From contig OZ252021.1 in the NCBI GenBank assembly GCA_965247685.1, positions 690,001 through 722,000 of the forward strand: a DNA stretch of 32,000 nucleotides, given 5' to 3'. This document shows, piece by piece, positions 1,885 through 14,535 of this stretch (positions are counted from its first letter, which is position 1; the number at the start of each line of letters is the position of its first letter). The DNA comes from Bdellovibrionales bacterium. Its GTDB lineage: Bacteria > Bdellovibrionota > Bdellovibrionia > Bdellovibrionales > UBA1609. The position numbers were made by a program, and so were the translations under genes. Below the pieces are notes generated by a model, which worked only from the letters and a program-made list of their open reading frames with translations, was not told the origin of the DNA and ran no database searches.

Positions 1885-3242
1885 TTAAGAGTATTACATT
1901 ACTTTTTCTAGGAGTTGCTTTTTTTGCTACAGCTCAAACTACTCCAGTGCGATCTTTAGAAGATCTAATGAAACTTGTTCAACAAGAAAGTTTAGAACAG
2001 AATCAAGAGTTTAAAGAAAGGCAAAGACGCTTTCTTAATGAAAAAAATGATCAGCAATTATTACTTCAAACTGCCAAAGCAGAACTCGCAGAATTAAGAA
2101 AAGTTCAAAAAAGATTATTGGATCAGTATAATGCTCATGAAAAAGAACTTGCTACACTTCAAAAAGAGCTCAATATTATTATTGGTTCCATGGGAGAGCT
2201 CTTTGGTGCTGTGAAACAAGTGGCAGGGGATTTTTCTGGAAAAATTTCTTCTTCCATCGTGTCTGCTGAGATTCCTAATCGAACACCTTTTCTCATTCAA
2301 ATTGCAAATCAAAAAGAGATGCCTGATATTCACACTCTTCGCCGATTGTGGGCAGAGCTTGTTATGGAGATGACAGAGCTTGGTCAAGTAAGAAAATTTA
2401 AAGGCACTGTGGTTTTAAATGATGGCTCTAGAGAAGAAAGACAAATTGTTCGTGTGGGTGGATTTAATTTAGTGAGCGATGGGGAGTACCTTTCCTACCA
2501 AAACGACACACAACAAATTACGGAACTCACTAAGCAACCTCCACGTCATCTACGTAGTCATATTTCTACACTCGAATCTGCAGATAAGGGGGAGAGGACT
2601 TTTGCTTTAGATCCTTCAAGGGGCACTCTACTTTCTGTTCTTCTTAAAGTTCCTTCCTTAGGAGAACGTATAGAACAAGGGGGACTTGTGGGGTACTTTA
2701 TTATTCTCCTGTTCTTTGTGGGGCTTGGTATAGGCGGTTATCGATTTATTGTCATTCGAAAAGAAGGGATTAAAATTAAAGAGCAATTAAAAACAGATCA
2801 AATCGACGAGTCGAACCCTATCGGACAACTTAGAAAAACCTTTGAACAGTATCAAACTCAAGATGTTGAAGCTTTAGAGCTGAAGTTGGATGAAGTGGTG
2901 GTGAAATCTTTACCAACTTTTGAAAAAGGAATTGGCCTGATTCGTATTTTCGCAGCCGTAGCACCTCTTTGTGGATTACTAGGGACAGTGCTGGGTATGA
3001 TTAATACCTTTCAAGCAATCACTTTATTTGGAACAGGAGATCCGAAGCTTATGGCGGGTGGTATTTCAGAAGCTTTGATTACAACGACTTTAGGGTTGTG
3101 TTGTGCGATTCCTTTATTATTTTTACACACATTTATTTCTTCAAGAGCTCAAGATATTATTCAAATTCTTGAGGAACAGATGGCGGGTCTTATTGTAAAG
3201 AAAGTGCAAAATAAAACAGCACCATTAGACTCTCGTGTATAA
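1881..3242 (+). CDS. Long MotA/TolQ/ExbB-family proton channel protein (TtpC-like)
   Basis: 453 aa with a signal peptide and a large periplasmic N-domain. The C-terminal domain carries the MotA/ExbB motif LCGLLGTVLGMINTF...GDPKLMAGGISEALITT. Confidence 0.75.
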   Translation: MIKSITLLFLGVAFFATAQTTPVRSLEDLMKLVQQESLEQNQEFKERQRRFLNEKNDQQLLLQTAKAELAELRKVQKRLLDQYNAHEKELATLQKELNIIIGSMGELFGAVKQVAGDFSGKISSSIVSAEIPNRTPFLIQIANQKEMPDIHTLRRLWAELVMEMTELGQVRKFKGTVVLNDGSREERQIVRVGGFNLVSDGEYLSYQNDTQQITELTKQPPRHLRSHISTLESADKGERTFALDPSRGTLLSVLLKVPSLGERIEQGGLVGYFIILLFFVGLGIGGYRFIVIRKEGIKIKEQLKTDQIDESNPIGQLRKTFEQYQTQDVEALELKLDEVVVKSLPTFEKGIGLIRIFAAVAPLCGLLGTVLGMINTFQAITLFGTGDPKLMAGGISEALITTTLGLCCAIPLLFLHTFISSRAQDIIQILEEQMAGLIVKKVQNKTAPLDSRV

Positions 3243-3260
3243 AGAGAGAAAGGAGAAATT

Positions 3261-3782
3261 TTGAGTTATCTGATCGAGTTGATTCAAGATTTTTTTTACC
3301 AAGGTGGATGGGTCTTACTTGTTATTTTTTTTGCTGTTTTGTTGATGCTCTATTTTATTTTAGAGAGATTTTTTTATTTTAAAGTAGAATTTTCAAAAGA
3401 CCTTGAGTCTTCTTTGAAAGAGTGGAAAAATTATCCTCATAAAAAATCTCGACTGGGGAATAAAGTTTTATCTTTGGAAATATCAGAACTTCATGCTTTG
3501 TTGGATAAAAATTTGAATTATATTAAAACTTTAATAGGAGTATGCCCTTTAATGGGTCTTTTAGGAACAGTGACGGGAATGATTTCTGTTTTTGAAATCA
3601 TGGCTGTAGTCGGTACAGGAAACGCTCGGCTGATGGCAGGCGGTATTTCAATGGCGACTATTCCCACTATGGCAGGAATGCTGAGCGCTCTCGTAGGTCT
3701 TTATTTTAGCAACCAATTAGAGTATTTATCGAAGATGAAAAAACAAAAAACAAAAGAGATGTTTGTTGGAGTTAGAAATTGA
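3261..3782 (+). CDS. exbB: ExbB/TolQ-family proton channel subunit
   Basis: 173 aa with three hydrophobic helices and the motif PLMGLLGTVTGMISVF...NARLMAGGISMA. TTG start. Confidence 0.8.
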   Translation: MSYLIELIQDFFYQGGWVLLVIFFAVLLMLYFILERFFYFKVEFSKDLESSLKEWKNYPHKKSRLGNKVLSLEISELHALLDKNLNYIKTLIGVCPLMGLLGTVTGMISVFEIMAVVGTGNARLMAGGISMATIPTMAGMLSALVGLYFSNQLEYLSKMKKQKTKEMFVGVRN

Positions 3783-7505: not shown

Positions 7506-9101
7506 ATGCTTATGAGATGGATTTGTATTTTTTTATTTTTGTTGGTTACTTCAAAGGTGATCTCTAAAAACACTAATAACCTACCTGTGAGAAAAATCAT
7601 AGATTCTATGACAGATGAGGAAAAAATAGCACAATTGATTACTGTTCGCACCTATGCTCCTGAACCTGTTGAAAATATTTTTAATGTTTTTGTTCCTGGG
7701 GGTTTTATCTACCACAGAAAATATCCAAGCACTAAAGAGGGGTATCTTTCTCGGATAAAAAGCATTGATTTTTTTACTCAATCGTCACTAAAGAAGTACT
7801 CTTTATTGCCATTGCAAATGGTGGATCAAGAAGGTTGTTCAGTGAATCGCTTTCCCAAAAAAACCTATTCTAAAAAACCCTTTCATCTGGCGGGTGCTCC
7901 AAAACTTGGAGCTGTTCAAGATTATTTTCTTGTTCAAAAGTTTGGAGAAGACTTAGGCCGTTATCTTTTTCTTTTTGGATATAATATGAATTTAGCTCCT
8001 GTGGTGGATATCTATAACTCTTCCAAAAAAGAAGAGTACATTGCTCAAAGAAGTATTAGCTCCGATTCCAATGTTGTTCAGAATGTGAGTCGAGCTTTTA
8101 CATTAGGTCTTCAAAAGCAAAAAGTGATTGCCACTTTCAAGCATTTTCCTGGATATTCCGGAGCGACTAAAAATTCTCACAATGAGATTGTTCGTATTTC
8201 CATTCCAAGAAAAGAAATCATAAAGAAGCATCTGGTACTTTATTCTTTTCAAGATGAACTTTCATCCCCTCAAGCTATTATGAGTAATATTGCCATTTAC
8301 GATCACCTTGATCGTTCGTCGACTGCTACTCTTTCAAAAAAAATTATTCAGAATTTATTAAGAGAAAAATTAAAATATGATGGAATCGTTATATCTGACG
8401 ATATTGGCATGAAGGGGTATAAAGAAAAAAGCTTAGTTCAGAGATCTATAAAAGCTATTTTAGCAGGGCATGATGTGATTTTACTTTCTGCTCATTTTAA
8501 TAATAAAAAAATTATACAAATTCATAAAAATTTGACTCATGAATTTCGAAAGAATAAATTGTTTAAGCAAAGAGTTTTAGAGAGCTTAGAAAGAGTGTTG
8601 AGGATTAAGAAAAATCTCACTTATGATTCTCGATCTTTTAAAAAAAGGCTTCAGTCTGTACTCAAGCAGGAGGAGAGGCTTTATTCGACTAACAATAAAC
8701 TAACTCAAAAAATTATGAAAGATTATTTCGACAAAAATCCTCAGTTAAATGGTTTCTTTTCAAAGAAAATTATTGTTTTTTCTGGTCAAAATGATGTGTA
8801 TAAATTAGTTCGTGATTCTGAAGCTTTTGACAAAATAATAAAATCGTCTCTTTCGAGAAAGGAGAGGAGTTTATTTTCTTTGCTTAAAGAGCCGAAGACC
8901 TTTGGAGTGTGTGTGGATCGAGGGGTTGCTTACTGTCAAAATTATGCAACAGATTCGCAGAAAAAAAAATTAGTAGTAGTGGATTCAAAATGTCGACCTG
9001 ATTCTCGCTTTGTAAAGGAGAAATATAAGGCTGTTATTCCTACTTATGGTCAATCGATGTTAGCTTTAAAGATGATTCTTGAAAAATTGTCCCATAAATA
9101 A
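7506..9101 (+). CDS. Secreted glycoside hydrolase family 3 protein (NagZ/beta-N-acetylhexosaminidase-like) with an uncharacterised C-terminal extension
   Basis: Signal peptide, then GH3 N-domain motifs KHFPGYSGATKNSH and GIVISDDIGMKG. The last ~170 aa are Lys-rich with no motif I recognise. Confidence 0.65.
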   Translation: MLMRWICIFLFLLVTSKVISKNTNNLPVRKIIDSMTDEEKIAQLITVRTYAPEPVENIFNVFVPGGFIYHRKYPSTKEGYLSRIKSIDFFTQSSLKKYSLLPLQMVDQEGCSVNRFPKKTYSKKPFHLAGAPKLGAVQDYFLVQKFGEDLGRYLFLFGYNMNLAPVVDIYNSSKKEEYIAQRSISSDSNVVQNVSRAFTLGLQKQKVIATFKHFPGYSGATKNSHNEIVRISIPRKEIIKKHLVLYSFQDELSSPQAIMSNIAIYDHLDRSSTATLSKKIIQNLLREKLKYDGIVISDDIGMKGYKEKSLVQRSIKAILAGHDVILLSAHFNNKKIIQIHKNLTHEFRKNKLFKQRVLESLERVLRIKKNLTYDSRSFKKRLQSVLKQEERLYSTNNKLTQKIMKDYFDKNPQLNGFFSKKIIVFSGQNDVYKLVRDSEAFDKIIKSSLSRKERSLFSLLKEPKTFGVCVDRGVAYCQNYATDSQKKKLVVVDSKCRPDSRFVKEKYKAVIPTYGQSMLALKMILEKLSHK

Positions 9102-9124
9102 TATAAACTTGTAAATGAGTAAAC

Positions 9125-9197
9125 GCTGGGGTAGCTCAATTGGTAGAGCAGCTGATTTGTAATCAGCAGGTTGGGGGTTCAAGTCCCTTCCTCAGCT
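9125..9197 (+). tRNA. tRNA-Thr (anticodon UGU)
   Basis: Hand-folded cloverleaf: acceptor GCTGGGG/CCTCAGC, D arm GCTC-AATTGGTA-GAGC, anticodon arm GCTGA-TTTGTAA-TCAGC, T arm GGGGG-TTCAAGT-CCCTT. No encoded CCA. Confidence 0.88.
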
Positions 9198-9204
9198 TTT
9201 TTTT

Positions 9205-9290
9205 GGAGAGATGCCTGAGCGGTTAAAAGGGGCGGGCTGTAAACCCGTTGGCTTATGCCTACGTAGGTTCGAATCCTACTCTCTCCACCA
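9205..9290 (+). tRNA. tRNA-Tyr (anticodon GUA), long variable arm, CCA encoded
   Basis: Acceptor GGAGAGA/TCTCTCC, anticodon loop CTGTAAA, long variable arm (TGGCTTATGCCTACG), T loop GGTTCGAATCC, 3' ACCA. Confidence 0.88.
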
Positions 9291-9341
9291 TTTTATTTTT
9301 GGAATTGACTGTTATGAAGATCTTTGTTATCACCTAGGCCA

Positions 9342-9722
9342 ATGAGATTGGTATATGCTTTTTTATTATCTTCATCCTTGGTGTTGAGCGGTTGTATTAC
9401 TCCTCTTACAAAGCAGCAAAGGTGTGCTCTTGAGGGAGAGTATTACACTGGTTCAACTGCTACAAATGTTCAAACAATTATTCTATCTAATGATGAGTAT
9501 GGTACATCAGTGATTAATCATAATCAACCAGTGAGACAACTTAATTGTAAAAGACCTACAACAGATGCTGAAAAAAAGGAAGTGACTGAGCTTATGCAAC
9601 AAATGCAAGAGCTTAGGAAGAAGGCCAGGAAGAAGAGCAAAAGGATTATCCAACAAGGAGGAATCCCTGTTCTTATTGCTACGATTTTAGGAGTGATTGC
9701 TTATATTGGTTGGAGCGAATAA
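9342..9722 (+). CDS. Small hypothetical lipoprotein with a C-terminal hydrophobic helix
   Basis: From the ATG at 9342 the protein reads MRLVYAFLLSSSLVLSGC, a signal peptide plus L-S-G-C lipobox. It has a Lys-rich segment and then IPVLIATILGVIAYIGW near the C-terminus. I recognise no homology. Confidence 0.45.
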   Translation: MRLVYAFLLSSSLVLSGCITPLTKQQRCALEGEYYTGSTATNVQTIILSNDEYGTSVINHNQPVRQLNCKRPTTDAEKKEVTELMQQMQELRKKARKKSKRIIQQGGIPVLIATILGVIAYIGWSE

Positions 9723-9806
9723 TATAGACAAAAAATGAAAACAAAATGTAATAAGAGTTTACCCATCAAATACCACTTCTAAATATATAGCAACTTTTCT
9801 TTAGAC

Positions 9807-10057
9807 TTAACTGCTATTATTAATCATAAAACTTTTCCAATAATGAAGCTCTGGAGCTGCGATTTTAGTATCGATCCATGTTCCACCTTTTGCTTTTTGC
9901 AAAAGAAGTTTTTAAAATCTGGTTTAAGTTACGAGCTTGGACTCCTGTAGGGTATCGTTAACGACAATAAGGTTTACCTGCGTTTCATGAATCATTTCCT
10001 GAAGTGCAATAATCTTACCTGTACCGAAGTACATCTTCCGACTTTGTTTTTTTCTTT
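9807..10057 (-). pseudogene. hflX remnant: N-terminal fragment (codons ~43-95) fused to the last ~30 codons, GTPase domain deleted, frameshifted
   Basis: 9908-10057 matches 12583-12735 of the intact hflX. In the 135-nt core I count 7 substitutions plus a 1-nt deletion. 9807-9899 translates to QKAKGGTWIDTKIAAPELHYWKSFMINNSS*, against QKEKGGTRLNTKLAHSQLQYWKSFIIESSS* in the intact gene. Confidence 0.7.
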
Positions 10058-11477
10058 AATCAAAATGGGGTTTAAAATCTTTTATGTTTTTACAAATTTC
10101 AATAGCTACTTGCTCCCCTTTGTAATGAAAACCCCCACCGTGAAGCCGAAGTATTTGATCAATATTCTTTCTCGGTGCATTAAATTGTTTTTCTATTAAA
10201 TATTTATAGTGCTCTTCTTTTGTTTCTCTTATAAAAGAACAAGCTACTCTTAAAAGTAAAGTACTATTATTGCGATTTATTGGATGATTTTCATCAAGTA
10301 TAAAATCAAATTTTTTGTCTTTTATAAATTCAATAAAATCAGGAACAGTAAATTCCTCATTTATTATCTTTTTAAAGGTATTTTTATCTTTTAAAAAAAG
10401 ACATATAAAAAAGGAATAAGCATCAAAATATACCAATGTAGAAGTTTTTTGTGAATGACCTAAAATCATTTCAAAAAATCTGATGAATATTTCCACTTCC
10501 CTTAAGGTTAATTTAAACATTTTACACAAGAAGTACACATGCTTAAATTTATGTTCCTCAGCTGCTTCTTTTACAATTTCTACCTTTGACTTTGTTATTA
10601 AATTATCAATGAATTGTTGGGCTTCTTTATAAGGATCCGGTAAATCTTTTTCCAATGTAAAAAATTTCCTATAATAACCGTCAAAATTTAATTCTTGACC
10701 ATAAAGACATTTGACCGTAGCTTCCATTTGCTCTCTGTTCACAGCCACAAGAAATAGGGTGTTCTTAATATCAAAAAAATGTTTCATATCTTCTAAAAAA
10801 TGAACTGCATAATCTGGACGTGAGCGATCTAGCTCATCCACAATAATTAAAAGTTTCTTTCTAGAAATTTCTGTGTATTTTGAAATGATTTCTTTAATAC
10901 TTTTAATAACCTTTTTTCTATGTTCAAAATTCTTTAAAATATCTTCACCTAATTTTCCATTTTTAGAAGATTGAACTATTTCTTTTAAATCAAATCCCGC
11001 TTTATTTCGAATCACTTGATTACCAATCTCACCGATGGCTTTTGTTATTCTAGAGATGAGATTTTTTATTTCGGTATCTTGTGACTGTTCAACTTTTATA
11101 AAACTTACAAGTTCGGAAAGTATAGTAATAACAGGTTCTTTATAAAAATCAGATTTCCATGCATTAATGAACAAAACACTATAGTCTTCTTTCTTCTCTG
11201 TTTTAATAAAATGCTCAAACATTTTTAAAAATGTTGTTTTTCCATTTCCAAATAAAGCGTTCAAGCTCATTGTAAAGCCTTCAACCTTATTTATATCATG
11301 AATGAAAGAAGATGCTCCGTCTTCCATTGTTTTGAGTAAATTTTCAGCAAATGGTTTTAATTGTAATTTATCAAAAGTAGCAAATGTGATTTGATCTTTT
11401 GAATTATTCTCCGATTGTTTATTTTGTTTTATTCTTTTCTCTGTAATCCAAAATATCAATTTTTTAAAAAAACACAT
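10056..11477 (-). CDS. KAP-family P-loop NTPase (solitary, no obvious TM insert)
   Basis: Walker A in KAP context (SLNALFGNGKTTFLKMF), then FINAWKSDFYKEPVITIL. Walker B / KAP signature LLIIVDELDRSRPDYAVHFLEDMKHFF. AAGGA Shine-Dalgarno 9 nt upstream of the ATG. Confidence 0.8.
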   Translation of the reverse strand: MCFFKKLIFWITEKRIKQNKQSENNSKDQITFATFDKLQLKPFAENLLKTMEDGASSFIHDINKVEGFTMSLNALFGNGKTTFLKMFEHFIKTEKKEDYSVLFINAWKSDFYKEPVITILSELVSFIKVEQSQDTEIKNLISRITKAIGEIGNQVIRNKAGFDLKEIVQSSKNGKLGEDILKNFEHRKKVIKSIKEIISKYTEISRKKLLIIVDELDRSRPDYAVHFLEDMKHFFDIKNTLFLVAVNREQMEATVKCLYGQELNFDGYYRKFFTLEKDLPDPYKEAQQFIDNLITKSKVEIVKEAAEEHKFKHVYFLCKMFKLTLREVEIFIRFFEMILGHSQKTSTLVYFDAYSFFICLFLKDKNTFKKIINEEFTVPDFIEFIKDKKFDFILDENHPINRNNSTLLLRVACSFIRETKEEHYKYLIEKQFNAPRKNIDQILRLHGGGFHYKGEQVAIEICKNIKDFKPHFD

Positions 11478-11617
11478 TATTTATATCCTTAATGAAAGGA
11501 GACTCTCCTTTTTCTATTATATAAGAGTTACTTATTTAAATAAAGTGTTTTTCATAAAGACTTCACTCCGTTCGTTGGAAAAAATAATCATGAAAATAAT
11601 ATGAGGGCAATTTTTGT

Positions 11618-12856
11618 CTAAGAGCTACTCTCAATAATGAAGCTTTTCCAATACTGGAGCTGGGAGTGAGCTAGTTTTGTGTTTAGCCGTGTGCCACCTT
11701 TTTCTTTTTGCATCTGATGAATTTTAGCCTGTTGACTCAAGAGATCAATTTTATGCTCTTCGTTTGTTGGAAAAAATAATTTAATTTTTTGATCAAGACT
11801 CCAGTAAGCTTTTCTCATTTCTTTAAAAAGATCTCCTACTCCCCTTCCTGTAAGAGCAGATATTTGAACTGAAAAATTTGTCTTTGGAATGTTATATCTT
11901 CGAGAAGGAAGACAGTCTATTTTATTATAAACATGGATAATAGGCTTATCCTGCCATCCAAAATCGTTAATGATTTCATAGGTCGTTTTAATTTGTTCGT
12001 GCATATTAGGATTGGAAATATCAATCACATGAAGAAGAACATCAGCAAAAGAAGACTCCTCTAGTGTCCCTTTAAAAGCATCAATAAGGTGGTGGGGTAA
12101 ATCTTGAATGAAACCCACAGTATCTGTTAGAACAGAAGAATCGAGATGAGGAATAAAGATTTTTCTGGTGGTCGGATCTAAAGTCATGAACAATTGATTA
12201 TGAGTAGCTATTTGTTCTCGAGTGAGCCGATTAAAAAGGGTGCTTTTACCAGAATTTGTATAGCCAATTAAAGCAAAACTACATACTTGGTTTCTATCTC
12301 TTAACTTTCGTTGCTGAAGTCTATTTTGCTTTAAAGATATTATTTTTTTTCTCAAAACTTTAATTCTTTTTTGAATTTGTCTACGATCTGTTTCTATTGC
12401 TTTTTCTCCAGGACCTCGTGTTCCAATTCCTCCTCCTTGTCTGGAGAGCGAGCCGAGCCACGCTCCTTTAACTCTTGAAAGATCATCTAGCTTTTGAGCG
12501 AGTTCTATTTGCAATTTCCCAGCATAACTTCTTGCCCTCTGGGCAAAGATTTTGAGGATCAATTGATTTCTTTCCAATAAGGAAATGTTTAAAATTTGAC
12601 TTAGGTTACGAGCTTGGACTCCTGTTAGGGTATCGTTAACGACAATAAGGTTTGCCTGCGTTTCGTGAATCATCTCCTGAAGTTCAATAATCTTACCTGT
12701 ACCGAAGTACGTCTTCCGATTTTGTTTTTTTCTTTGTTGGTTGATGGTTCCTGCAACTTGGATGTTGGCTGAGCGAGCGAGTTCATGAAGCTCTTCTAGA
12801 GCTATTTTATCTTTGGTATTATCAATGCTAAGTATGGCTTTTAGTTGTTGTTTTAT
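11618..12856 (-). CDS. hflX: GTPase HflX (ribosome-associated); 5' end uncertain, no canonical start codon for the conserved N-terminus
   Basis: G1 GYTNSGKST, G3 DTVGF, G4 NKID, and the HflX N-domain (AGKLQIELAQ..., RGPGEKAIETDRR). The frame stays open and HflX-like (KAILSIDN...YFGTGKIIELQE) for 62 codons upstream of the ORF-track ATG at 12673. That stretch contains no ATG, GTG or TTG. Confidence 0.85.
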   Translation of the reverse strand: MKQQLKAILSIDNTKDKIALEELHELARSANIQVAGTINQQRKKQNRKTYFGTGKIIELQEMIHETQANLIVVNDTLTGVQARNLSQILNISLLERNQLILKIFAQRARSYAGKLQIELAQKLDDLSRVKGAWLGSLSRQGGGIGTRGPGEKAIETDRRQIQKRIKVLRKKIISLKQNRLQQRKLRDRNQVCSFALIGYTNSGKSTLFNRLTREQIATHNQLFMTLDPTTRKIFIPHLDSSVLTDTVGFIQDLPHHLIDAFKGTLEESSFADVLLHVIDISNPNMHEQIKTTYEIINDFGWQDKPIIHVYNKIDCLPSRRYNIPKTNFSVQISALTGRGVGDLFKEMRKAYWSLDQKIKLFFPTNEEHKIDLLSQQAKIHQMQKEKGGTRLNTKLAHSQLQYWKSFIIESSS

Positions 12857-13053
12857 ACTTTAATCCTATTCAAATATTCCTTTTTGTAAATAATATCTAT
12901 TTTATAAAGTAGCATAAAAGAGCTTCATAATCCACTGTACTTTTATCCGTAAAAATAATAAGCAAACGAATAAAGCCTTGTTTTAAACAGCTTTATTTAT
13001 TGATTTCAGATTTGATTGTTGATATATCCTATCTACTAGTCAAGGAGTTATAT

Positions 13054-13521
13054 ATGGGTATAAATATTGGATTGTCTGATTCTGCTCGAAAACAAATTTC
13101 TCAAGAACTGAACAAAATTTTAAATGAATATTACGAGCTAGCTTTAACCACTCAGTTTTACCACTGGTACATTAAAGGACCTCAGTTTTGCACACTTCAT
13201 GAACTTTTTGGTAAACACTACGAGGATTTTTCTAAAACAATAGATACGATTGCTGAAAGAATTCGAGCGTTAGATGAAGCTATTGCCATCGACTTTACAT
13301 TGTTACAAAAGTTCAACTCTTCACAAAAAGATTTTTCAAAACTTAAAGATGTGGATATGTTGAAAAACTTAATTCAGTCTCATGAGGCTGCGACACAAGA
13401 TCTAAGAAAAATTGCATCCATTGTAGAAGGTAATGGAGATTTTGTAACAGCTGACTTTTTGGTTGGTCGCATGGAAGCACATGAAGAAGCACTATGGGTT
13501 TTAAGAAGTTTTCTTAGTTGA
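13054..13521 (+). CDS. dps: Dps-family DNA-binding ferritin-like protein
   Basis: Dps motif FYHWYIKGPQFCTLHELFGKHYEDF...IAERIRAL. The ATG at 13054 has an AAGGAG Shine-Dalgarno 6 nt upstream, so the TTG at 13000 in the ORF track is probably not used. Confidence 0.85.
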   Translation: MGINIGLSDSARKQISQELNKILNEYYELALTTQFYHWYIKGPQFCTLHELFGKHYEDFSKTIDTIAERIRALDEAIAIDFTLLQKFNSSQKDFSKLKDVDMLKNLIQSHEAATQDLRKIASIVEGNGDFVTADFLVGRMEAHEEALWVLRSFLS

Positions 13522-13537
13522 GAAGACGATGGTTCAT

Positions 13538-13613
13538 GCGGAAGTAGCTCAATTGGTAGAGTATCAGCCTTCCAAGCTGAGGGTTGCGGGTTCGAGGCCC
13601 GTCTTCCGCTCCA
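13538..13613 (+). tRNA. tRNA-Gly (anticodon UCC), CCA encoded
   Basis: Acceptor GCGGAAG/CTTCCGC, anticodon arm TCAGC-CTTCCAA-GCTGA, T arm GCGGG-TTCGAGG-CCCGT, 3' TCCA. Confidence 0.9.
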
Positions 13614-13729
13614 CTCATTTTGTAGTGAAGAATATTTAAAAAACAACCTCTTTCCTGTTTTGATTGATGAAATTTGTGAACCAAAAAGCTGTTTTGAAAA
13701 TAATCTTCATGAAAGAAAAAGAACTACTT

Positions 13730-14233
13730 TTATTCTTGAGTTGAATTGAGAAATTCTTTCAAATCTTTTGTGTTTGTTGGATTGGTTCTAACTTCGTTTA
13801 AGGATTTTATATTAGTCAATTCATCTCTCTCTACATTAGAAGAATGGGTTATACCACGGGCTTCTGAAAGGGGATCTAATTTTTCATCTAATTGAGAAAA
13901 TTTTAATTCTATTTTTTCATCTACTCGAACAAACTGTCGTTCCGCAAAAGTAAATAGCCCTAATAGAGCAACAACAACAACCCCGCTTGGAATCCATCCT
14001 GTTTTTTCAGATTTTGATATTCTAGAATGAAATTGCTCAGAAAGTGTTTTTTCAGATTCTGATATTTTATCTCTCAGAGAAGAAATTTGATTAGAAAGTG
14101 TTTTTTCAGATTTTGATATTCGAGAATGAAATTGCTCAAAAAGTGTTTCTTTAGTTTCTTGTTGTTGTTTTGCGATTTCTAAGTTTACTTTTGGCTTAAT
14201 ATCAGATTCATAATTTAATTTTTTCTCGCCCAT
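13730..14233 (-). CDS. Hypothetical single-pass membrane protein with tandem coiled-coil repeats
   Basis: 167-aa ORF with the in-frame repeat EQFHSRISKSEKT / LSNQISSLRDKISESEKT / LSEQFHSRISKSEKT, followed by one TM helix (GVVVVALLGLFTF). I recognise no family. Confidence 0.45.
   Translation of the reverse strand: MGEKKLNYESDIKPKVNLEIAKQQQETKETLFEQFHSRISKSEKTLSNQISSLRDKISESEKTLSEQFHSRISKSEKTGWIPSGVVVVALLGLFTFAERQFVRVDEKIELKFSQLDEKLDPLSEARGITHSSNVERDELTNIKSLNEVRTNPTNTKDLKEFLNSTQE
14001..14144. repeat. Three tandem units (45, 54 and 45 nt) inside the 13730-14233 ORF
   Basis: 14001-14045 and 14100-14144 match at 43/45 nt. The central 54-nt unit (14046-14099) shares the ends gttttttcagatt...gaaagt. 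Confidence 0.8.
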
Positions 14234-14535
14234 TTGATCTTCCTGTTTACAATGACTTCAATAATTGTATCTTATTTTAGCTTCTTGCCTTCAAAAAAAA
14301 ATAAAATCGTCTCATAATAAAACAGAATATTGAATTTTATTTACTTGTTCTTTTTAATCCAACATACATTTAAAAAAAAGGAGGGATAAAACAAGAAGTG
14401 CACTCATTCATACCTTTACTGATAACCTTTATTATCTTATAGCTATGGTTATAACGACCACGAAGTAAAGGATTACAGTAAGATGTTTAAAACTAAATAT
14501 TGACATAACTTCTTTTTTAATTGAAAGAGATCACT

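Follow-up and report, generated by a model that had tools for sequence, protein, structure and literature searches.

A solitary PDC-S20-type KAP NTPase gene between an apparently chimeric hflX and hflX-derived debris in a Bdellovibrionales bacterium

Single proteins that combine a KAP-family NTPase with an uncharacterised C-terminal region defend E. faecalis against phages, and this defence depends on Walker B (PMC13552941). The PDC systems comprise 145 phage defence candidates derived by their embedding in BREX, DISARM and type I restriction-modification (RM) loci (10.1101/2024.01.29.577857). Here we describe a KAP gene matching one of these candidate classes, PDC-S20, in a 32,000-nt stretch, hereafter the window, of a Bdellovibrionales bacterium (GenBank assembly GCA_965247685.1, contig OZ252021.1, positions 690,001 to 722,000). 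The host is a small-genome, Bdellovibrionota-like organism represented by a 1.28-Mb contig, and the locus analysed is the hflX-KAP interval on the minus strand, for which all coordinates are given as positions in the window. We consider it rather probable that a KAP gene of the PDC-S20 type was acquired horizontally at the junction of hflX and the tRNA-Tyr gene, that the scraps of hflX around it are scars of recombination, and that its place next to hflX is incidental.

EF_KAP and three metagenomic open reading frames (ORFs; PLoS Biol 2026, PMC13552941), as well as PifA of the F plasmid, share with the window protein the KAP P-loop core with Walker A and Walker B motifs, and EF_KAP and the three metagenomic ORFs are single-gene defences that need an intact Walker B (PMC13552941). 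The PifA model matches only aa 56-259 of the window protein, its NTPase core (E 5.5e-12). EF_KAP differs in two modelled transmembrane (TM) helices and an extra C-terminal region of 322 aa, whereas the window protein has no TM segment and a compact helical C-terminal half. RdrA of RADAR, a ring-forming defence ATPase, is the best solved-structure match to our AlphaFold2 (AF2) model, but sequence identity is 12-14%, RdrA is about 800-850 aa long, and it works with the RdrB deaminase; no gene for an RdrB adenosine deaminase lies beside the KAP gene. QatA, offered for comparison in an earlier note on this DNA, has the KAP-type P-loop and gives a partial match (aa 144-258), but the score of 43.9 bits stands against an NCBIfam equivalog cutoff of 600, and no ORF for QatB, QatC or QatD (TatD/QueC-like) was found within the insertion. 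By these profile matches the KAP protein does not belong to QatA, and the resemblance is reduced to a distant one in the P-loop.

For the layout of the locus, the described counterpart is icd/icdC of E. coli K-12 with prophage e14 and phage 21, where the element keeps its target gene intact via a substitute 3' end (PMC13626634). The substitute and native ends differ in sequence, according to the passage in that article which cites Hill et al. 1989 (PMC13626634). The window resembles such e14-type insertions in three respects, namely target-gene repeats at both ends of the insert, a divergent end in the working gene and displacement of the native end. It differs in that the insert is a single 1.4-kb gene without an integrase or other phage genes, that the displaced piece is internally deleted and also includes hflX codons 43-95 from further upstream, and that the crossover site is ambiguous, at codon ~87 or ~384.

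The KAP gene and its family

The KAP ORF (11477-10056, minus strand) encodes an intact P-loop NTPase of 473 aa that matches PF07693 with 98.8 bits (cutoff 20; E 4.5e-28) from aa 42 to 337 on profile positions 3-288 of 293. Walker A (GNGKT, aa 77-81) lies within FGNGKTT (aa 76-82) and Walker B (DELDR, aa 214-218) within LLIIVDELDR (aa 209-218), both stretches being the same throughout 73 relatives. The family membership proposed in the earlier note is borne out, as are the AT-richness it had counted by hand (27.2% GC and 19.9% at third codon positions for KAP, against 36.3% for hflX and 35.8% for the window) and the solitary state of a gene without TM insert, for which the ORF table, the AF2 model and the hydropathy profile agree. 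No TM segment was detected in the protein, the maximum 19-aa Kyte-Doolittle hydropathy being 1.19 and the AF2 model having no TM-like helix. Aravind et al. are said to have described in 2004 that TM helices are inserted in the P-loop domain of many, not all, KAP members; such an insert is not obligatory for the family and is missing here.

Four PDC-S20 models of PADLOC match the protein, the best being PDLC04959 (E 3.2e-64, 216 bits, aa 31-431 on positions 15-414 of 464), as judged by E-value and bit score. A database search with the protein returned 140 relatives at E up to 0.001; the best 120 of them are mostly 40-55% identical, down to about 30%, and all are annotated with PF07693. The few named relatives among the matches listed come mostly from metagenome-assembled genomes (MAGs) of Bdellovibrionales or Oligoflexia, and the nearest among the matches listed is only ~53% identical. 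Plasmid and phage searches yielded only distant relatives of 23-36% identity, and a sequence-profile search of the PDB gave no meaningful match.

To assess integrity, the protein was aligned with 17 and then with 72 of the relatives. It is full length up to the C-terminal motif Q.A..IC..I...KS.F and keeps 30 of 30 invariant positions, those of Walker A and Walker B included, from which we infer that the gene is intact and probably under selection. Relative to its relatives the window protein carries a non-conserved N-terminal extension of ~10-16 aa. The AF2 model, built from a 73-sequence alignment (mean pLDDT 82, pTM 0.77), has an alpha/beta P-loop core and, C-terminal to it, a half made up of helices only. 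In Foldseek searches against solved structures, RdrA ranked first (E 4e-4, TMq 0.41-0.49), followed by AAA+ proteins of the ORC/Cdc6 type. By analogy with other KAP/STAND-type defence ATPases, the protein may oligomerise and act as an ATP-driven sensor-switch, and would block phage replication through its all-helical half.

PDC-S20 models match all 18 KAP relatives examined, and the genes around the relatives vary from locus to locus. One relative lies between hsdM and hsdS/hsdR in a type I RM operon (L001), one is followed by a DUF1016/YhcG nuclease gene (L002), and one by genes for a type III methylase, YhcG and Res (L007). Two more stand amid genes for AAA_15, GmrSD_N, HEPN, TIR and Peptidase_M78 proteins (L062) and amid methylases, an SduA_C protein and ResIII (L063), while another adjoins an IS30-type transposase (L008) and yet another is followed by an IrrE-like HTH-peptidase gene (L009). 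The window gene shares with the PDC-S20 class the near full-length profile match, the single-gene format and relatives in or beside RM systems; it differs in lying outside a defence island, alone between housekeeping genes of the 1.28-Mb contig. It has no partner, being flanked by hflX, by hflX debris and by an orphan ORF on the opposite strand. On this sequence evidence the gene is a candidate single-gene defence module of a class already named PDC-S20, for which a literature search found no paper, and the corresponding idea of the earlier note, an accessory or defence module, is strengthened by the relatives. As a compact, soluble and partner-less KAP NTPase, it would make a handy minimal representative for anti-phage tests of PDC-S20 and for studying the action of an effector-free KAP ATPase.

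The earlier note had also considered that the KAP gene might be tied functionally to the GTPase beside it. In such a reading, KAP and HflX would be partners in a co-transcribed module acting on ribosomes under stress or infection, as might be expected of two co-directional genes separated by a 140-nt spacer in which no convincing terminator-like site was found on the minus strand, and of an insertion that left hflX intact. However, a search of 59 loci (L001-L059) found hflX or fragments of it only in the hflX reference loci L003-L005, the remainder being loci of KAP relatives, and the gene tables of the KAP loci L062-L064 contain no hflX. Moreover, the three closest genomes carry hflX without KAP, and in the genome of one close relative the KAP homolog, 41% identical, lies at another locus. 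We accordingly regard a functional link as very improbable.

The hflX gene and the hflX-derived repeats

Three closest genomes (L003-L005, contigs of 1.16 Mb, 1.37 Mb and 0.34 Mb) encode full-length HflX proteins 79-82% identical to that of the window. Two of them share the gene order of the window from TonB/ExbBD through folB/folKP, an F420-ligase-like gene, GH3, tRNA-Thr and tRNA-Tyr to hflX, and past hflX through ferritin, tRNA-Gly, grx2, tuf, secE, nusG and the rpl genes to rpoB. Each of the three has a single hflX, no KAP gene at this locus and no hflX debris; such debris was likewise not found in two more distant relatives (five relatives searched in all). Because syntenic relatives lack KAP and carry one hflX only, KAP is, by this comparison, an accessory insertion specific to the window genome rather than a core gene, which agrees with the accessory status that the earlier note had suspected. 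In L004 the hflX/tRNA-Gly segment is inverted (8900-11200, compared with 9100-13650 of the window), and no GH3 or ferritin gene was called. One breakpoint of this inversion falls at the hflX 3' flank/tRNA-Tyr and the other close to tRNA-Gly; this junction is hence rearrangement-prone in a second genome too.

On the minus strand, hflX (12856-11618) is followed by the 140-nt spacer (11478-11617), the KAP ORF, and two pieces of hflX debris which we call B' (10057-9902) and D' (9901-9807). The 156-nt B' begins at the last base of the KAP stop codon and corresponds to hflX codons ~43-95, its counterpart within the working gene being copy B (12579-12735); D' is joined directly to B' and corresponds to the last 30 hflX codons with the stop, its counterpart being the tail D of the working gene (11618-11712). 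The debris copy lacks hflX codons 96-383, ~288 codons including the G domain. This layout, as well as a loss of about 290 codons with the G domain, had been described in the earlier note and is upheld by ORFs, repeats and translations with small corrections.

The working gene has 412 codons plus stop, with GTP-bdg_N, GTP-bdg_M and MMR_HSR1 domains (TIGR03156 at 416 bits). It had been called intact, a description that needs qualification at both ends. No ATG, GTG or TTG precedes codon 62, and an ATA stands at 12856-12854, one codon past an in-frame TAA. In all four genomes the frame opens 1-6 codons past an in-frame stop, and the start position (window 12854-12862, minus strand; L003 9857-9865; L004 about 9899; L005 about 9857) holds ATA, or ATC in L004. 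In this clade hflX seems to use a conserved non-canonical AUA/AUC start, and gene callers shorten HflX to 351-378 aa.

At the other end, the tail of the working gene is aberrant. Nucleotide identity of working hflX to the relatives is uniform at 76-78% save in the last 90 nt, and the odd tail, whose peptide reads QKEKGGTRLNTKLAHSQLQYWKSFIIESSS, is 62-65% identical to the relatives, which among themselves are 70-76% identical there. Seven of the last 29 residues (24%) are private substitutions, against 0-1 (0-3%) in each of the three relatives, while the rest of the same protein has 0-7%. The debris tail D', by comparison, shares 81-87% identity with the 3' ends of hflX in L003-L005 (E 1e-16 to 2e-22), and past the breakpoint the debris is clade-typical, with NLNQILKT and a tail of the form GGTW.DTKI..PEL.YWKSFM as in the relatives. 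The supposedly intact hflX thus appears to be itself a chimera, its last 30 codons being an odd allele and the clade-typical tail surviving in the debris. For codons 87-383, sliding identity and private substitutions place the four genomes about equidistant from one another, and for this reason neither a native nor an imported origin can be assigned to that part.

The main repeat is a mosaic. BLASTN aligns 9902-10057 with 12579-12735 at 91% over 157 nt (E 3e-58), and the repeat search splits this into 110 nt at 95% (9948-10057 versus 12626-12735) and 47 nt at 85% (9902-9948 versus 12579-12625). In the pairwise alignment the first 131 nt contain 6 substitutions and one 1-nt deletion near 9948, which according to translations and alignment is the frameshift in B', and the last 26 nt contain 7 substitutions. 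Identity therefore drops from 95% to 73% (6/130 versus 7/26 differences, Fisher p = 0.0014), with the boundary near 9927 in B' and near 12604 in B. A 135-nt core with 7 substitutions and a 1-nt deletion had been reported before; the frameshifting deletion was found again, and the substitutions are divided as given here. The tail copies 9808-9901 and 11619-11712 are 71% identical in the repeat search, so that D and D' diverged long before the 95% tract arose. In the latter (first ~130 nt), both copies share states unique to the window genome, and the derived changes (E to A, A to V and the frameshift) lie on the debris copy, as expected for a decaying duplicate. The unequal divergence of the two flanks, from which the earlier note had deduced more than one event, is thus real; the deduction itself is plausible but not compelling.

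A purely local history, in which hflX was duplicated in tandem, one copy decayed and KAP inserted independently with no foreign hflX allele involved, would account for the unique derived states shared by the first 130 nt, and in related MAGs the islands that carry KAP often contain patchwork duplications. We nevertheless think this quite unlikely, given that the tails are 71% and the 130-nt tract 95% identical, a heterogeneity with p = 0.0014, and that the decayed tail is nearer to the relatives (81-87%) than the working tail (62-65%), the opposite of what recent decay of a duplicate would leave. An assembly artefact, i.e. a chimeric join of two strains, could be suspected in a MAG-type contig of 1.28 Mb holding two hflX alleles. 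Mixing of strains, however, does not yield debris that is internally deleted, frameshifted and fused base-for-base to the KAP stop codon; the repeats measure just ~157 nt, and the flanking DNA runs collinear to that of the relatives, which makes an artefact hardly credible.

A third, smaller piece of hflX lies in the spacer, where 23 nt encoding LFFPTN (11566-11588, codons ~360-367) match 11758-11780 at 21 of 23 positions (91%); the identity had been noted before, the coordinates being corrected here. Its local score was equalled in 1 of 500 dinucleotide shuffles of the spacer. All three hflX-derived scraps are present and beyond chance, the tail and main repeats by the similarity to relatives and the BLASTN value given above, which answers the concern of an AT-rich background; among them the LFFPTN scrap, though probably real, is the weakest. 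The spacer is moreover a patchwork, as it also holds part of a 45-nt copy of KAP codons ~45-59 (11474-11518 versus 11284-11328, minus strand), 80% identical, which overlaps the ribosome-binding region and start codon of KAP and whose score was reached in none of 500 shuffles (z ~8.6). The LFFPTN scrap and the KAP-leader copy both stand 190-192 nt away from the sequences that they copy (within 11284-11780). A tandem duplication of 190 nt was considered as the source of both and rejected, the DNA between the scraps having no residual similarity. Promoter-like sites in 9200-13100 did not exceed shuffled expectation, and an Rfam scan returned tRNAs only.

Arrival of the cassette

In the horizontal acquisition that we favour, hflX would have served as target or homology anchor for KAP insertion and not as a functional partner, following the same logic of architecture as icd/icdC flanking prophage e14. 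The working end of hflX, at least its last 30 codons and possibly everything from codon ~87, would have been imported with KAP, and the native 3' end would have been displaced to the far side of the cassette, where it presumably decayed to a pseudogene consisting of codons 43-95 and 384-413, with one frameshift and a deletion of 288 codons. The data are compatible with different orders of recombination events, and more than one event is plausible, not required; as a minimal path, one integration of a mosaic molecule and one deletion would give the same layout.

Several points weigh against this account. No integrase, transposase or other recombinase was found in or beside the cassette, the only ORFs of the insert being KAP and the orphan, so that a site-specific mechanism would be hypothetical. 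The searches yielded no donor, even the best KAP match being as distant as stated above, and hflX codons 87-383 are as close to the relatives as these are to each other. A 130-nt tract of 95% identity between alleles that are 71-74% identical calls for a mosaic donor or later gene conversion, and the scraps at 11566-11588 and 11474-11518 suggest further events outside the simple model. As to function, PDC-S20 is a bioinformatic candidate family only, with a predicted defence role; the validated EF_KAP was modelled with TM helices and a long C-terminal extension, neither of which the window protein has, and the three other validated KAP ORFs also carry diverse C-terminal regions (PMC13552941).

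Downstream of the debris, synteny resumes at the genes for tRNA-Thr(TGT) and tRNA-Tyr(GTA) (9125-9290, plus strand), with 90-92% identity to L003-L005 starting at 9290-9294. Between the debris and tRNA-Tyr lies the orphan ORF (9342-9722, plus strand), whose 126-aa product combines a lipoprotein-type signal (LSGC) with a TM helix at the C terminus. In a search of 5.8 billion proteins it matched nothing but itself, and neither Pfam nor PADLOC gave a match. The syntenic gap in L003 and L005 is only ~119-219 nt, and the orphan, which may belong to the insertion, is absent there.

These features bear on a scenario of opposite polarity, in which the working hflX with its odd tail and KAP are the old residents, while B'-D' and the orphan ORF were imported from the hflX-tRNA region of a relative. 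Homology-facilitated illegitimate recombination would then have used the highly conserved tRNA-Tyr/Thr genes as anchor and joined the incoming DNA at the KAP stop codon, and gene conversion would later have homogenised 130 nt of B'. The exact resumption of synteny and of 90-92% identity at tRNA-Tyr would make a good homology anchor, the orphan ORF is absent from the relatives at the corresponding place, the alleles of the debris are clade-typical, and a junction exactly at the KAP stop is what an illegitimate join would look like. However, this would explain neither how KAP arrived nor why the hflX tail is aberrant, so that more events are needed, and no relative was found with an orphan-like ORF downstream of hflX or with KAP at this locus. 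We hold this scenario to be unlikely, albeit the least so among the alternatives to horizontal acquisition of KAP.

The 130-nt repeats have the same orientation, and an exchange between them would excise KAP along with hflX codons 87-413, G domain included, so that just a frameshifted stub would remain. If hflX is needed, the KAP cassette would now be fixed, as its loss by this route would destroy hflX. On the acquisition reading, the locus would show in a clear natural case how a candidate single-gene defence (PDC-S20) enters a streamlined genome, with breakpoints to the base and three KAP-less relatives as controls, and would illustrate that the gene of a conserved ribosome-rescue GTPase can be rebuilt as a chimera during insertion. 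The KAP case is a tidy but fairly ordinary defence-gene acquisition, in which the family is known and this member is new; nothing here overturns present understanding, and what is unusual is the legibility of the scar.

Repeats at other KAP loci and a second variable spot

Direct repeats were also observed around KAP genes elsewhere. In L009, a 159-nt repeat of 96% identity (7659-7817 and 11816-11974) flanks a KAP homolog, the IrrE-like HTH-peptidase gene and a TPR/zinc-ribbon gene; it consists of the last 27 codons and the terminator of this TPR gene, in length and layout parallel to the window. In L062, several copies of KAP 5' fragments with 83-97% identity occur (1-444, 2611-2843 and 3023-3568 versus 7672-8531 and 9736-10270), and a 557-nt repeat flanks the KAP-bearing block of the defence island. 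Flanking repeats are present in L063 as well. Taken at sequence level, these arrangements suggest that recombination through short segments of adjacent genes may reshuffle the KAP cassettes.

One may speculate further that PDC-S20-type KAP genes in these Bdellovibrionota move without an integrase, using ~150-160 nt of a host gene as a handle, carrying a replacement gene end and leaving a displaced pseudo-end behind, though we would call such a general mode doubtful. If it were true, the window with its 157-nt hflX repeat and L009 with its 159-nt, 96% TPR-gene repeat would be two instances, and internal deletion of the displaced copy would lock the cassette in place, because recombination between the repeats would destroy the host gene.

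A second variable spot lies between ferritin/tRNA-Gly and grx2 (window 13614-14520, L003 672-8989, L005 6357-9097). It holds an AT-rich ORF for a 167-aa coiled-coil protein in the window (15.6% GC at third codon positions), a SocA_Panacea gene in L005 and three large unannotated ORFs in L003.

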